A stretch of 64,000 nt of DNA from Parcubacteria group bacterium (lineage in GTDB: Bacteria; Patescibacteriota; Patescibacteriia; Buchananbacterales; UBA6539): the NCBI GenBank assembly GCA_002687175.1, contig NYZP01000001.1, positions 78,236-142,235 on the forward strand. The letters run 5' to 3'. The notes under the pieces were generated by a model that was given only the letters and a program-made list of their open reading frames with translations, was not told where the DNA came from and did not search any database. Made by a program: the position numbers and the translations under genes. Positions within the stretch are counted from its first letter, which is position 1. The number at the start of each line of letters is the position of its first letter. Positions 32,271 through 62,201 of this stretch are shown here, piece by piece.

Positions 32271-32627
32271 ATGGTAAATATTGAGGGAAGAGGGGGCTCA
32301 TCTGTCGAAGCTGACGCCAGCTGGAAGGCTGAGGAGGGAGAAAGAGAATCATTAACTGACAGAGAACAAAGAGCTATAGGTAGACCTGCTGATATTTTTG
32401 CAAGTGGAGAGGATTTATCTAAACTCTTAGAAGATAATGGAAGTATAGAAGCACGACTTTCTGATGGTGCCAGAAAACTTAGAGATAATCCAGATATAGA
32501 ATTTAAAGGTGTAAAATTTAGTGAGTTAGCAAGTGATCAGCAACAGTTTATAGAAAATGCAATAACTGCAGCTAACGAGTATCAGACTGAGATGGAAGAA
32601 AGATTAGGACTCGAGAAAACCATGTAA
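32271..32627 (+). CDS. hypothetical acidic protein
   Basis: 118 aa, slightly GC-elevated, no recognisable domain. Confidence 0.4.
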   Translation: MVNIEGRGGSSVEADASWKAEEGERESLTDREQRAIGRPADIFASGEDLSKLLEDNGSIEARLSDGARKLRDNPDIEFKGVKFSELASDQQQFIENAITAANEYQTEMEERLGLEKTM

Positions 32628-32643
32628 TAAATTTATTAAAAAA

Positions 32644-32668
32644 CGGGGTGTCGGCCCCGTTTTTTTAT
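32644..32668. terminator. bidirectional Rho-independent terminator between convergent genes
   Basis: CGGGGTGTCGGCCCCG followed by TTTTTTTATTT. Confidence 0.6.
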
Positions 32669-34797
32669 TTATCTAAAAATTGCTTAACTTTTGTCTTGGC
32701 CGGACTTGACTGTTTAAGCCAAACTACGTCATCATTTTTTCTAAACCAAGTCATCTGCCTTTTAGCGAAATCATGAATTGAATTTTTAAGTCCTTCGACT
32801 AATTCTTCTTCAGAAATTTTATCTTGCAAGAAATTAGACACCCAACGATATTCTAATCCAAAATCATTAAGCCTCTGCCAACTGACACCTTGTTGTCTTA
32901 ACTTTTTAACTTCGTCAATCATCCCCTCTTGATTTATTCTGGCTACTAAGCGCTGATCAATCTTTTGATGTAAAATATCCTTAGGGAAGGTAACCCCTAG
33001 CTGTAAAAAATTGTATGGTGGTTTTTTATTATCTTCTTGTTCAGATTTAGGAATTCCAGTTTGGTAAAAAATTTCTAAGGCACGCTGAACTCGACGTCGA
33101 TTCTTTTGATCAATTACTTTATAAGTTTCCGGGTCTATTTTTTTTAGAAGACTTAGTAGTTGCTTTAATGATAGCTTATTTAAATCTATTTTTGGAATTT
33201 GGAATTTGGAATTTGGAATTTCTAAATTATAACCCTCCGTTAAGGCTGAGATATACAAACCAGTTCCCCCGCAAATAATTGGCAATTTACCACGTTTTAA
33301 AATTACGTTAACTTTTTCAAAGGCTAATTTTTGCCAATCCGCTACATTAAACTGACTTTTGGGTGAAACCACATCAATCAAGTGGTATGGTATCTTGCCG
33401 TACTCTCCTAGATCCTTACCAGTGCCAATATCCATTCCTTGATAAACTTGACGAGAATCAGCTGAAATAATTTCACCGTCATATTTTTTGGCTAGCTCAA
33501 CAGCTAACTTGGTTTTTCCAGAAGCAGTAGTACCTAAAACCACTACCACCTTCGGTAACTCCCCGCTTAGCCCCCAGGCATAACAACTGGTAATCTTAAT
33601 AAATATTAATTCACCTGTTCGGTCTATGTCTGATGCAAACTTAATATTTTTATAACTATTAGTCTTGCCAAAGCAAAAACCATCTTTGTAATTATCAACT
33701 AAAACTTCAACTGTTAGACCAACTAATTTTTTGTTATGCGTTAGTGCGGTTTTTTTTAAGATAATATTTAAAGCTTTCTCTCGCCTTTTCTTTTCGTCTT
33801 TTGTAACGTTATCTTTTAGCTCAGCTGCTTTGGTATGAGATCTTTGAGAATATTGTGACAGAAATGCCATATCAAATTTTATATCTTTAAATAACTGCAT
33901 CGTACCGGCAAATTGCTTTTTAGTCTCACCGGGAAAACCGACAATGATATCAGTAGAAACGGCAATACCCGGTATTGCTTTTCTAATTTTTGTGATAATT
34001 TTTTTATACTGTCCGACCGTGTAAAATCGTTTCATTATTTTCAGCATCTTATTATCTCCTGATTGTATTGGTAAATGTAAATAAGGAATAATATGTTCTC
34101 CTGTGGCCATTACTTTAATTAACTTGTCGGTCATAAATTTAGGATGACTACTAGAAAAGCTCAACCAAAAATGGCCAGAAATTGCATCCACTTGTTGTAA
34201 TAATTTTGAAAAATCTGTCTGGTTATGTTTATAACTATTAACTGTCTGTCCTATTAAAATAATCTCTTTATAACCTCGAGCAATTAAATGTTTACATTCT
34301 TTAATAATATTTTTTGGAGACCTTGAAACTTCTCTACCTCGAACATAAGGTACTACACAAAAAGAACAAAATTGATTACAACCCATCATAATTGGTACAT
34401 AGGCCTGGAAACTTGACTGGTAGCTGGGATGAATTTCTGAATAGTCTGCTGGCAGACGTAAAACTTTTTTGGCTAATATGCTTGGTAATTTAGGTAGGTC
34501 AGTTATCGGAAAAACCAGATCAAAAAATTTAGACATCTTAACTTTATCAGATTCCAAAATACAGCCAGACAAAGCCGTGATAAGTGGTTTATTTTTTTTA
34601 ATTTTGCTAAATTTTTTCTCTAACCCATAAATCCGATCAATAGCAGTTTGGCGGATTGAGCAAGCTAAAACTACTACCAAATCAGCTTGATTATCATCAG
34701 TAGTTTTTTGGTAGCCTAAATTTTCTAAAACGGTGGTTACCTTTTCATTATCAGCCACGTTAAACTGACAGCCAAAAGTGATTATTTTGTATTTCAT
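32665..34797 (-). CDS. fused tRNA-modifying enzyme: N-terminal MiaB-type methylthiotransferase (MTTase-N + radical SAM + TRAM) joined to a C-terminal MiaA tRNA dimethylallyltransferase
   Basis: A single 710-aa ORF. The MiaB part has FGCQFNVADNEK and CNQFCSFCVVPYVRG. The MiaA part has VVVLGTTASGKTKLAVELAKKYDGEIISADSRQVYQGMDIGTGK. Confidence 0.85.
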   Translation of the reverse strand: MKYKIITFGCQFNVADNEKVTTVLENLGYQKTTDDNQADLVVVLACSIRQTAIDRIYGLEKKFSKIKKNKPLITALSGCILESDKVKMSKFFDLVFPITDLPKLPSILAKKVLRLPADYSEIHPSYQSSFQAYVPIMMGCNQFCSFCVVPYVRGREVSRSPKNIIKECKHLIARGYKEIILIGQTVNSYKHNQTDFSKLLQQVDAISGHFWLSFSSSHPKFMTDKLIKVMATGEHIIPYLHLPIQSGDNKMLKIMKRFYTVGQYKKIITKIRKAIPGIAVSTDIIVGFPGETKKQFAGTMQLFKDIKFDMAFLSQYSQRSHTKAAELKDNVTKDEKKRREKALNIILKKTALTHNKKLVGLTVEVLVDNYKDGFCFGKTNSYKNIKFASDIDRTGELIFIKITSCYAWGLSGELPKVVVVLGTTASGKTKLAVELAKKYDGEIISADSRQVYQGMDIGTGKDLGEYGKIPYHLIDVVSPKSQFNVADWQKLAFEKVNVILKRGKLPIICGGTGLYISALTEGYNLEIPNSKFQIPKIDLNKLSLKQLLSLLKKIDPETYKVIDQKNRRRVQRALEIFYQTGIPKSEQEDNKKPPYNFLQLGVTFPKDILHQKIDQRLVARINQEGMIDEVKKLRQQGVSWQRLNDFGLEYRWVSNFLQDKISEEELVEGLKNSIHDFAKRQMTWFRKNDDVVWLKQSSPAKTKVKQFLDK
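33194..33221. repeat. tandem heptanucleotide repeat (GGAATTT)x4 inside the miaB-miaA CDS
   Basis: Read directly in the sequence. It encodes EIPNSKFQIPKI within the MiaA part. Confidence 0.8.
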
Positions 34798-34960
34798 GAT
34801 AGTCTATAGAATATCATATAATATTGACTATTTCAAGCTAATTTATTGACAAAATACTAATTTTATGTTAGTCTTAAAAGTCTAAAAAAGACAGCAAAAC
34901 AAAGAAATTTCAGTCCATGGTGGACTAAATGCAACTTGAAAATTTACGAGGAGAGAAACG

Positions 34961-58048: not shown

Positions 58049-60019
58049 ATGGCCCTAGCCGAAGTTACAAAAATAAACATCATTGGACATCAAAAACATC
58101 AAGAAGATTTTTTAGAGGTGTTACAAAATTCTGGTTTTATTCAACTTGCTGATTATTCAGACGAAAATTTGGAAAAATCGAATCTTAATGAACAAATTTC
58201 CGAAGTTGATTATAAACTGGCCGGATTAAAATTTAGTTTAAATTTTTTACAATCTTTTGAAAAAAAGAAAAGTTTATCAGAAAAAATTAATTCCAGGATT
58301 AATTTAAACATATTGGAATTAGAGACCACTGTTCATAATTTTGACCTTGAACAAAAAGTGAAAGATGTTCAAAATATTGAATCAAACATTAATCAAGCAC
58401 ATAATTTAAAAGACAAACTAACTTTAGAACTAAACCAAATTAGTCCCTGGAATAAAATAAATTTTATTCCAACGATTAATGAAAACGCAAAATACCATTT
58501 CAAATTTTTAAGTTCAAACCCAAAGGTTTTTATTAACTTACAGACAAAAATAAAGTCCAACTTTCCTCTAGTAGCTTTAGAAAAAATTGATACAATTGGT
58601 AAAGCTAAAAAAGAAGAAATTTTAAGTGTTGTATTTTTTCAACATGATGTTGAGGAAAAAATTATTGAGCTTTTAAGTAAACTGGATATTAAAATTATTG
58701 ATCTACCAAATCTTGATAAAACTGTTAACGACCGAATCAAAGAAATAAATCAAGAAATCAGTAAGGCCGATGATGACTTAGCTAAATTTAAACTACAAGC
58801 GGAAAAAGTAGCCCTCGACCAAGAAGAATTAAAAATTTCGTTTGATTATTTTACTTGGCAAAAAGAGAAATTAGTTAATCTGGCTAAAGCTGGTAATACT
58901 CAACAAACATTTTTCTTAAGCGGTTGGATTAATAAAAAATCAATCAAACCTCTAGAAAAACAACTGGACAAAATAGCTGATGATTTTGTCATTGAAGAAC
59001 AATCTATAAAAAAAGATGAAGTGGTTCCAGTTATTTTTAACAACAAACTGGCCAAAGATTTTGAATCAATTACCAGCCTCTACGGCTCGCCACAAGGTAA
59101 TGAACCTGATCCCACCCCATTTCTCGCCCCATTCTTTATTTTATTTTTTGGTATGGCAATGACTGATGCTGGCTATGGCTTAATCATGGCCTTGGGTATT
59201 TTGGCAGCTATTAAATATTTAAAAATTCCTCAAGCTAAGCAAAAACTCTTACGAGTATTAATGTGGGGTGGGGTAGCAACATTTGTTTTAGGGGCCTTAA
59301 CTGGTGGCTGGTTCAGTATTGAACTGGCAATCTTACCACCAGCTATTGCCAGTGCTTTAGGATTTTTGAAAGTGATTGATCCAATTGCTAATCCCCTTTT
59401 AATTTTCTATATTTCCTTAGGTTTAGGGGTAACTCAGGTGCTAACTGGACTGGCCATAGATACCTATTGGAAAATAAAAAGTAAACATGTTTTAAAAGCT
59501 GTCACTGGCAGTGGGGCCTGGATGTTGGCAATTATTGCTGGTCTAATTTTCGCTGGCGGGTCAATGGGAGTTTTACCGGCCGTTTTCAGTCAAGTTGGAA
59601 AATGGTTAATCTTTCTGGCGATTGGTTTAATTGTTTATGGTGGAACCAAAAATACCAAAAATGTAATTTTAAAACCAGGACTAGGAATATTATCTTTATA
59701 TGGTGCAGTTGGTTACTTCTCGGACATTCTGTCTTACTCTCGTTTGTTGGCGCTGGGACTTACCACTACCATTATTGGCACCGTGGTCAATATAATTGCT
59801 GGATTGGTATTTGCCATTCCCTACGTTGGTTGGTTAGCTTCCTTAATAATTTTAGTTGGTGGTCACTTATTCAATTTAGCAATTAATGCCTTAGGGGCTT
59901 TTATCCATTCAGCTCGTTTGCAGTTTATTGAATTTTTTCCAAAATTTTTGGAAGGTGGTGGAGAGCCATTCGAACCATTCAAAAAAGAATCTAAATATAT
60001 AAATTTAACTAATAATTAA
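58049..60019 (+). CDS. atpI: V/A-type ATPase subunit I (a)
   Basis: 656 aa. Hydrophilic N-terminal half plus a C-terminal polytopic half containing the conserved Arg in LSYSRLLALGL. Confidence 0.85.
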   Translation: MALAEVTKINIIGHQKHQEDFLEVLQNSGFIQLADYSDENLEKSNLNEQISEVDYKLAGLKFSLNFLQSFEKKKSLSEKINSRINLNILELETTVHNFDLEQKVKDVQNIESNINQAHNLKDKLTLELNQISPWNKINFIPTINENAKYHFKFLSSNPKVFINLQTKIKSNFPLVALEKIDTIGKAKKEEILSVVFFQHDVEEKIIELLSKLDIKIIDLPNLDKTVNDRIKEINQEISKADDDLAKFKLQAEKVALDQEELKISFDYFTWQKEKLVNLAKAGNTQQTFFLSGWINKKSIKPLEKQLDKIADDFVIEEQSIKKDEVVPVIFNNKLAKDFESITSLYGSPQGNEPDPTPFLAPFFILFFGMAMTDAGYGLIMALGILAAIKYLKIPQAKQKLLRVLMWGGVATFVLGALTGGWFSIELAILPPAIASALGFLKVIDPIANPLLIFYISLGLGVTQVLTGLAIDTYWKIKSKHVLKAVTGSGAWMLAIIAGLIFAGGSMGVLPAVFSQVGKWLIFLAIGLIVYGGTKNTKNVILKPGLGILSLYGAVGYFSDILSYSRLLALGLTTTIIGTVVNIIAGLVFAIPYVGWLASLIILVGGHLFNLAINALGAFIHSARLQFIEFFPKFLEGGGEPFEPFKKESKYINLTNN

Positions 60020-61208: not shown

Positions 61209-62201
61209 ATGCCCCAAGCCGGATACAACTATGCCTCCGCCAAAATAAGAGCCTTGGAACCAGCAATTTTGGATGTTACGGACATGGAAAGAATGGCTGA
61301 TGCTCCTGATTTTGCTACCGCCTTCAAAGTCTTAAATGACACTGACTACGCTGATAATTTATTAGATGTTGATGCTTTGGAATATCGTCAGGCTTTAAAA
61401 GATGATTATCGTCAACTTTACGATCTACTTAAAGACATTACGCCAAATAATGATCTATTTAAACTAATCTTTATTGAACGTGACATTGTCAATATTAAAC
61501 TCTTGTTTAAGGCTAAATTTTTTGAGGTTGAGGTTGATGCCATGCTAAGAGACAACACTATTTATCAATCTAGTCACTTGAAAGAATTTATTTTTGATAA
61601 AAAAGATAGTGGTCTAGATCAAGATATTAAAGATTTAATCAACAATGTAGAAAAAATTATTGATGAGTCCAGTCGGCCGGATTTTATTGATTCAATAATA
61701 ACTAAGGAATACTTTAGGCTAATAAAAAAAATAGCTAAAAAAATTAACAACCAGTTAGTTGATCAGTTGATCATCAGTCAAATAAACAATGCCAATATCT
61801 TAACTTGGCTACGAGCCAAAAGATTGGGCTTGGCTAAGGAACGACTTGCTGAAAAATTGGTTACCGGTGGTAATATTGATCCAAAAAAACTTATTGATCA
61901 ATATTCTGAAGAAGTTAAAAATATCAGAACTTTAATAAATGTTTATTATGACAAGCAAGTAATTGAGGCTCTTGATAACTACGCCGAGAATAATTTACTG
62001 TTTGAATTTGAAAAAGCTTTAGAAGATTATAAAACAAGAGTTGTCCAGAAAACTCAGCGCATTGCCGCTGGTCCAGAAGTAATTTACGCCTATCACCTAG
62101 CTAAACAAAATGCCGTCGCTAACATTAGGATAATTTTAACTGGTAAATTAAATAATATTTCGGGCGAAGAAATTAAAAAAACTCTTAGACTTGTTAAATA
62201 A
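61209..62201 (+). CDS. atpC: V/A-type ATPase subunit C (d)
   Basis: 330 aa all-helical, in the canonical operon position. Confidence 0.7.
   Translation: MPQAGYNYASAKIRALEPAILDVTDMERMADAPDFATAFKVLNDTDYADNLLDVDALEYRQALKDDYRQLYDLLKDITPNNDLFKLIFIERDIVNIKLLFKAKFFEVEVDAMLRDNTIYQSSHLKEFIFDKKDSGLDQDIKDLINNVEKIIDESSRPDFIDSIITKEYFRLIKKIAKKINNQLVDQLIISQINNANILTWLRAKRLGLAKERLAEKLVTGGNIDPKKLIDQYSEEVKNIRTLINVYYDKQVIEALDNYAENNLLFEFEKALEDYKTRVVQKTQRIAAGPEVIYAYHLAKQNAVANIRIILTGKLNNISGEEIKKTLRLVK

Follow-up and report, generated by a model that had tools for sequence, protein, structure and literature searches.

MiaA makes N6-isopentenyladenosine at position 37 of tRNA (i6A37) from dimethylallyl diphosphate (DMAPP), and its substrates are the tRNAs that read UNN codons. 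MnmC of Escherichia coli, an experimentally characterised bifunctional enzyme of tRNA mnm5s2U34 modification, is a natural fusion of consecutive steps on one nucleotide. Its second-reaction module lies N-terminal to the first-reaction module, and unfused versions occur in other bacteria. Fused and unfused MnmC1/MnmC2 forms appear among the references of PMC5372745. MiaB absolutely requires i6A to make the 2-methylthio derivative ms2i6A37 (PMC2952846). Here we analyse a 64,000-nucleotide (64-kb) stretch of contig NYZP01000001.1 from a Parcubacteria group bacterium, hereafter the window, in which one gene, miaBA, encodes a single polypeptide with a complete MiaB in its N-terminal part and a complete MiaA in its C-terminal part. 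Among described proteins, MnmC is the closest analogue in kind, as consecutive tRNA-modification activities are fused and the second-step module is N-terminal in both, the activities of the window protein being predicted ones. MnmC differs in chemistry, folds, and tRNA position (34 vs 37), and the window protein is known from sequence.

Each half of the protein has counterparts of solved structure. The MiaB part resembles Bacteroides uniformis MiaB (PDB 7MJV-7MJZ) in its layout of UPF0004, radical S-adenosylmethionine (SAM), and TRAM domains and is 33-34% identical to 7MJV/7MJZ. Unlike that protein, it lacks a separate stop codon, its TRAM strand runs into the MiaA module, and some of its fused relatives are without TRAM entirely. 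The MiaA part shares with the MiaA proteins of E. coli (2ZM5, 3FOZ) and Bacillus halodurans (2QGN, 3EXA) the whole profile, the P-loop, the DSxQxY motif, and the helical insertion domain, whereas it lacks a separate start codon and its N-terminus is not free, strand β1 starting two residues past the end of MiaB. In the searchable full-text literature, including reviews of i6A and of tRNA sulfur modification, no account of a MiaB-MiaA fusion was found; subscription journals lie mostly outside that literature, so the absence is unproven.

The fused gene and its junction

The product of miaBA was identical, by an exact database match, to GenBank entry MAF13384.1, which is named 'hypothetical protein CMI53_00620' of a Parcubacteria group bacterium. 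Both halves scored above the equivalog cutoffs of NCBIfam. The MiaB model TIGR01574 gave 383.6 bits against a cutoff of 355.3 over residues 2-414 (profile positions 1-436 of 437), and the MiaA model TIGR00174 gave 240.4 bits against a cutoff of 148.65 over residues 417-697 (profile positions 1-286 of 288). In Pfam, IPPT was matched at residues 450-687 with an E value of 4e-66 (profile positions 1-242 of 243), in addition to the two MiaB domains listed in Table 1, all with E values well beyond the reach of chance. Assignment of the N-terminal half to MtaB, the ms2t6A methylthiotransferase (MTTase), or to RimO was rejected, as TIGR01579 (285.4 bits, cutoff 357.05) and TIGR01125 (240.3 bits, cutoff 357) both scored below their cutoffs.

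The three Cys residues of the UPF0004 domain for the auxiliary [4Fe-4S] cluster, C10, C46, and C79, are all present, and the window protein has all six cluster-binding Cys residues of MiaB. In the MiaA module, we take the Asp of the DSxQ motif to be the general base, by analogy with E. coli MiaA. The motifs quoted in the initial annotation of this DNA, namely FGCQFNVADNEK, CNQFCSFC, GTTASGKTKLAVELAK, and DSRQVYQGMDIGTGK, were all found in the reading frame. Its proposal that one polypeptide contains MiaB and then MiaA, both complete, is borne out by the equivalog scores, the retention of the catalytic residues, and the match to solved folds described below, and the domain search (UPF0004, Radical_SAM, IPPT, and both NCBIfam equivalogs) supports either half. 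Judged by these profiles and motifs, the halves are ordinary members of the MiaB and MiaA families, respectively.

The TRAM domain claimed at the same time held as a fold but not as a Pfam assignment. The Pfam TRAM model gave no match to the window protein at E<=0.01, whereas TIGR01574 aligned up to position 436/437, the AlphaFold2 (AF2) model contains a five-strand block at residues 362-413, and Foldseek matched the protein to the MiaB structure 7MJZ. The Pfam family PF01938 (TRAM) is precomputed on many of the fused homologs.

The junction between the modules had been predicted near 33540-33640 and was located inside that range (Table 1). Entries for the window protein come from NCBI, ENA, Tara, and MetaClust and cover three contigs of up to 242 kb. 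The contig index had no match to the exact protein, and independence of assembly is deduced from the list of sources and from the two separate assemblies of P0004. Its homolog P0004 (locus L081), which is 66% identical, is encoded by the same 710-residue gene in independent assemblies from JGI/NCBI (922-kb contig) and ENA, and the gene stands in conserved synteny in both. The junction peptide W408-T424 (WGLSGELPKVVVVLGTT) is identical in the window and L081. Of its codons, 11/17 differ between the two genes, all of them synonymously and none non-synonymously, which is direct evidence that translation continues across the junction and that purifying selection acts on this frame. The same zero-linker junction is present in the close relatives in the alignment, and base composition and synteny are continuous across the fused gene.

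An assembly or sequencing artefact, that is, a frameshift merging two adjacent genes or a chimeric contig, has to be weighed here, as split and fused relatives are one frame change apart where the genes overlap at ATGA, and a 1-nt error could mimic a fusion. However, the identical protein is listed by NCBI, ENA, Tara, and MetaClust on three contigs, the 23 closest clusters and about 100 further ones are all fused, the aligned close relatives have an identical junction without linker, and the junction has evolved only synonymously in a region of continuous composition and synteny. An artefact is thus extremely improbable. The initial annotation had named a frameshift or stop at the junction, with two adjacent genes merged by error, as what would overturn it, and this objection fails, because the junction is in frame in the best 120 clusters and its codons are under purifying selection.

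We also considered an internal start that would give free MiaA. A Shine-Dalgarno (SD)-like GGGGAG precedes, by 9 nt, GTG codons located at the junction; L081 has GTT in their place, so the candidate start is not conserved and was rejected.

Table 1. Features of the fused gene and its immediate surroundings, in window coordinates
Feature	Positions	Strand	Basis or remark
Fused miaB-miaA gene (miaBA)	32665-34797	minus	Single uninterrupted open reading frame, ATG start, 710 residues plus stop
MiaB N-terminal MTTase domain, UPF0004, residues 2-91	34525-34794	minus	Pfam PF00919, 1e-17
Radical-SAM core, residues 135-302	33892-34395	minus	Pfam PF04055, 4e-27
CNQFCSFC cluster motif (C140, C144, C147)	34357-34380	minus	CxxxCxxC of the radical-SAM core
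TRAM-like β-barrel, residues about 357-414	33556-33729	minus	Ends in conserved W-G-L-x-G-E-L
Fusion junction L414-P415-K416	33550-33558	minus	No linker between modules
MiaA module, residues 417-697	32707-33549	minus	TIGR00174 and IPPT
MiaA P-loop GTTASGKT, residues 422-429	33511-33534	minus	Motif GxTxxGK[ST]
MiaA DSxQ(V/I)Y motif DSRQVYQGMDIGTGK, residues 447-461	33415-33459	minus	Sequence motif
Promoter-like TTGAAA, 17-nt spacer, TG-TATTCT	34808-34836	minus	About 10 nt upstream of the miaBA ATG
Terminator-like hairpin AAAAAACGGGG-TGTC-GGCCCCGTTTTTT	32638-32665		Consensus scan; 12-bp GC-rich stem, flanked by an A-run and a T-run

Breadth of the fused family and its gene order

The best 120 database clusters, which come from NCBI, JGI, ENA, and Logan and represent many independent assemblies, were all fused. 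Each contains UPF0004, Radical_SAM, and IPPT, with 43-66% identity to the window protein and a length of 634-776 residues, and the fused state holds for the 23 closest clusters (56-66% identity) as well as for the more distant ones. In an alignment of 40 fused homologs, the MiaB residues C46, C79, C140, C144, and C147 and the MiaA residues G422, T424, G427, K428, D447, S448, and Q450 were invariant, and C10 was missing solely from N-terminally truncated gene calls. The linkers between the modules range from 0 to about 17 residues and differ between clades.

When an exhaustive search was made over 1.84 billion representatives clustered at 50% identity and the top 150 were classified, both halves were found in 21, invariably MiaB then MiaA, and the remainder consisted of stand-alone MiaB (n=122) and stand-alone MiaA (n=7). 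The fused family is real and widespread, yet compact. Since stand-alone MiaB and MiaA dominate this search and belong to one pathway, the description of the protein as a Rosetta-stone fusion is apt. The statement that the architecture is not a standard one was upheld by the standard of model organisms only; in Patescibacteria it is frequent. Among the clusters P0001-P0120, PGAP names the fused proteins as MiaB only, IMG uses either a MiaB name or 'tRNA dimethylallyltransferase', and some are called 'hypothetical protein'. As the fused proteins are named for one activity, MiaA will be miscounted when tRNA modification in Patescibacteria is inventoried from genomes.

Gene order was compared by a scan of one genome per GTDB species, in which 80 loci were kept of >600 matches and classified by locating both halves and their stop-to-stop reading frames; it gives no frequency estimate. 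One of the 80 loci is fused, L002 in the complete genome of Candidatus Nealsonbacteria bacterium (CP179889.1). A separate miaB is directly followed by miaA in many other Patescibacteria (e.g. L003, L006, L009, L014, L030, and L046), with ATGA stop/start overlaps in L003, L009, and L014 and overlaps of about 14-30 nt in L006 and L030. These overlaps imply that the split pairs of Patescibacteria are classic translationally coupled genes, and in them SD-like GGAG/GAGG coincides with the codons for the conserved G-E at the end of TRAM.

The same miaB-then-miaA order was found in Actinomycetota (e.g. L037, L040, L055, L059, L067, L024, L041, and L052), where all full-length matches among the loci kept are two genes and none is fused. 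Of these, L037, L040, L055, L059, and L067 are from Solirubrobacterales and relatives. The genes are separated by 29-67 nt in Solirubrobacterales, by about 170-320 nt in Arthrobacter, Rothia, Bifidobacterium, and Microbacteriaceae, and by about 2 kb in Streptomyces. Adjacent pairs such as L003, L009, L030, L037, and L041 have the same genes, order, and strand as the window and the same W-x-L-x-G-E TRAM C-terminus, whereas they encode two polypeptides and the window encodes one. The adjacency in Actinomycetota indicates that the gene order either predates the fusions of Patescibacteria or is convergent.

Where miaB and miaA overlap, a single frame change suffices for fusion, and the gene comparisons indicate that the fusion arose from such an overlapping pair and recurs across Patescibacteria. 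The domain order, opposite to the order of the reactions, is explained by the ancestral order of the adjacent genes, miaB then miaA. It had been called inverted, which is correct as the reverse of the reaction order but not as a design feature, since it is the ancestral gene order.

A neighbour-joining tree of the concatenated halves placed split loci within clades of fused ones. Fitch parsimony required a minimum of 5 transitions between the fused and split states, with 3-6 across 100 bootstraps. The window, L081, and the distant L083 share a deeply conserved synteny around the gene, in which threonyl-tRNA synthetase (ThrRS) lies upstream of miaBA, and miaBA is followed by convergent gatB preceded by tmk. 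In this syntenic position, L005 (3992-4894) contains only a stand-alone MiaA of 300 residues, 59% identical to the MiaA half of the window protein, and its order is ThrRS, miaA, and then, on the opposite strand, a small reading frame downstream of gatB and tmk. This comparison of loci indicates that the MiaB module has been deleted at L005, and the stand-alone MiaA indicates that the MiaA module is autonomous. The metagenome-assembled genome containing L005 carries the label 'uncultured Gammaproteobacteria'; in view of its Parcubacteria-like synteny, this label is probably wrong.

Structural model and relatives without TRAM

The AF2 model of the window protein had a pLDDT of 88.8 and a pTM of 0.84. 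The TRAM strands were placed at residues 362-371, 374-379, 384-388, 397-406, and 409-413, and the last of them continues directly into strand β1 of MiaA (416-422). The residue blocks spanning 401-430, which include the junction, had pLDDT values of 95, 96, and 89. In this model the two modules apparently form one rigid body with no linker between them. Foldseek aligned the model to MiaB 7MJZ with a TM score of 0.86 over 436 columns and to tRNA-bound E. coli MiaA (3FOZ, 2ZM5) with TM scores of 0.84-0.86 over about 305 columns, the latter match covering the MiaA core together with the helical insertion domain. By sequence, the closest solved chains were 7MJV (3e-70, residues 4-413) and 2QGN (2e-59, residues 416-696), and no PDB chain in the sequence search of solved chains spans both halves.

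TRAM is cleanly deleted, with MiaA kept, in 7/120 fused clusters (P0047, P0055, P0061, P0087, P0091, P0107, and P0117, the last being L083 5001-6923), and several of the representatives at 50% identity are likewise fused without TRAM. In these forms the P-loop strand of MiaA comes right after the post-radical-SAM helix. Split miaB genes without TRAM were also found, abutting or overlapping miaA, in L014 (2-979) and L046 (3233-4366). To our knowledge, MTTases without TRAM have not been described before. In MTTases, TRAM is considered to be the part that clamps the RNA (PMC2952846), and its loss beside MiaA suggests that MiaA can supply the tRNA binding. These TRAM-less derivatives are a more surprising lead than the fusion itself. 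Two of the fused TRAM-less clusters, P0055 and P0061, have the P-loop GPNASGKT or GQNASGKT, in which Asn replaces a Thr conserved without exception in the alignment of 40 homologs, and prenyl transfer may be impaired in them.

Proposed function, surroundings of the gene, and significance

We consider it very probable that the window protein is a genuine bifunctional enzyme that converts A37 first to i6A37 and then to ms2i6A37 and that was born from a miaB-miaA pair. Its ancestor would have been an abutting or overlapping, translationally coupled pair, miaB then miaA, from which the stop codon between the genes was lost. The C-terminal MiaA module would prenylate N6 of A37 with the dimethylallyl group of DMAPP, giving i6A37, and the N-terminal MiaB module, a predicted radical-SAM methylthiotransferase with two [4Fe-4S] clusters, would then add the 2-methylthio group to give ms2i6A37. 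Since the two sites act on one and the same flipped-out A37, the anticodon loop has to change pockets, leaving that of MiaA and re-docking in that of MiaB. The fusion would ensure a 1:1 ratio of the modules and place the second site on the same body, allowing a hand-off by proximity. Since both modules are intact, the protein should carry out both steps.

The analysis bears directly on the reading frame, on the completeness and conservation of both modules, on their evolutionary origin, and on the predicted rigidity, whereas the two enzyme activities, along with any channeling or kinetic advantage, are inferred. Several points weigh against this bifunctional reading. The 64-kb window contains no tRNA genes, so no A36-A37-A38 substrates are seen there, and no source of DMAPP, of Fe-S clusters, or of reductant is encoded in this window of ordinary housekeeping DNA. 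Moreover, the repeated fusion and fission and the MiaA-only locus L005 indicate that the modules are separable, and the advantage of fusion may be small.

The same repeated fusion and fission, together with the separability of the modules, makes it plausible that genome compaction produced the fusion as a nearly neutral side effect. The modules would then act independently, with neither hand-off nor cooperative tRNA binding, and the sole effect of fusion would be equimolar co-expression, which the overlapping operon already provides. Split and fused forms are indeed interleaved in the tree, with the minimum of 5 transitions (3-6 over 100 bootstraps), linkers of 0 to about 17 residues occur in different clades, altering a single base of an ATGA overlap suffices to join the genes, and L005 has kept MiaA alone at the same locus. 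What such neutrality accounts for less well is the fixed arrangement of the modules in the AF2 model (pTM 0.84, junction pLDDT about 89-96), which is not that of beads on a string. Between proteins that are 66% identical overall, the zero-linker junction has likewise been conserved, its codons differing synonymously only, and the loss of TRAM, found among the forms compared in fused proteins and in miaA-abutting split ones, is hard to explain if MiaB had to bind tRNA alone. On balance, a neutral fusion is rather unlikely, although it deserves to be taken seriously.

Alternatively, one of the modules could be catalytically dead, e.g. the MiaA half serving only as a binder of the anticodon loop, or the MiaB half being inactive in oxic seawater. 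In a few fused relatives (P0055 and P0061), Asn substitutes for the P-loop Thr that is invariant otherwise, which would fit a dead MiaA half, and the TRAM-less variants suggest an RNA-binding role for it. In the window protein, however, all catalytic motifs of both modules are intact, and these are invariant in the 40 homologs, and both halves score above the equivalog cutoffs. Moreover, MiaB depends on i6A (PMC2952846), and neither a second miaA nor a second miaB was found in the 64-kb window. A passenger module is thus very improbable. A doubtful but more far-reaching possibility, which extends the bifunctional reading, is a rigid two-site machine in which MiaA would clamp the tRNA for both reactions, its body remaining bound while A37 passes from the prenyl-transfer pocket to the radical-SAM pocket. 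MiaA as the common clamp would make TRAM dispensable, which would explain why TRAM-less fused and operon-coupled forms exist. If this is true, separate MiaA and MiaB proteins from overlapping operons would work as a physical complex, and the fused protein would be a natural case of tRNA channelled between successive modification enzymes.

Around the gene, the hairpin listed in Table 1 separates miaBA from the convergent unit of gatB and a 118-residue reading frame and is probably a bidirectional intrinsic terminator. The promoter-like site was recognised by consensus only, and matches of this kind are no more frequent than in shuffled sequence. As miaBA is alone on its strand, it is likely monocistronic. 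No SD sequence is visible before the miaBA ATG (34798-34836), and the mRNA may be leaderless or nearly so.

The 118-residue putative reading frame (32271-32627, plus strand) encodes an acidic product without a Pfam match, starts 2 nt past the gatB stop, and lies in a strong local GC skew of +0.36. At its position L081 has about 60 nt only and L005 has a reading frame of 116 residues; homology between the latter and the window frame was rejected (E = 36). On the other side of miaBA, the segment 34961-38645 contains, on the plus strand, two large reading frames (600 and 573 residues) with hydrophobic signal-like N-termini, for which Pfam gave a weak PD40 repeat only. The GC content of this segment is 45-52% vs 33-37% in the flanks, and L081 has only a 150-residue reading frame between ThrRS and miaBA. 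From these features the segment looks like an inserted island for secreted or surface proteins. The window also encodes subunits of a V/A-type ATPase, a V_ATPase_I-like protein and an AC39/C subunit, at 58049-60019 and 61209-62201.

The fusion is real and mildly interesting, and it is less unusual than the initial annotation assumed. Because both enzymes and their pathway are textbook knowledge, it reveals no new chemistry. It provides independent comparative evidence for a tight coupling of the i6A and ms2 steps, in a series that runs from an operon through overlapping genes and fused genes to the loss of TRAM, and it offers a compact natural single-chain system for testing the hand-over of tRNA between successive modification enzymes. 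It also exposes a systematic annotation gap, in which one of two functions is missed. For the organisms themselves, it means that very reduced genomes keep, and even consolidate, an anticodon-loop modification that is costly in Fe-S clusters and SAM.

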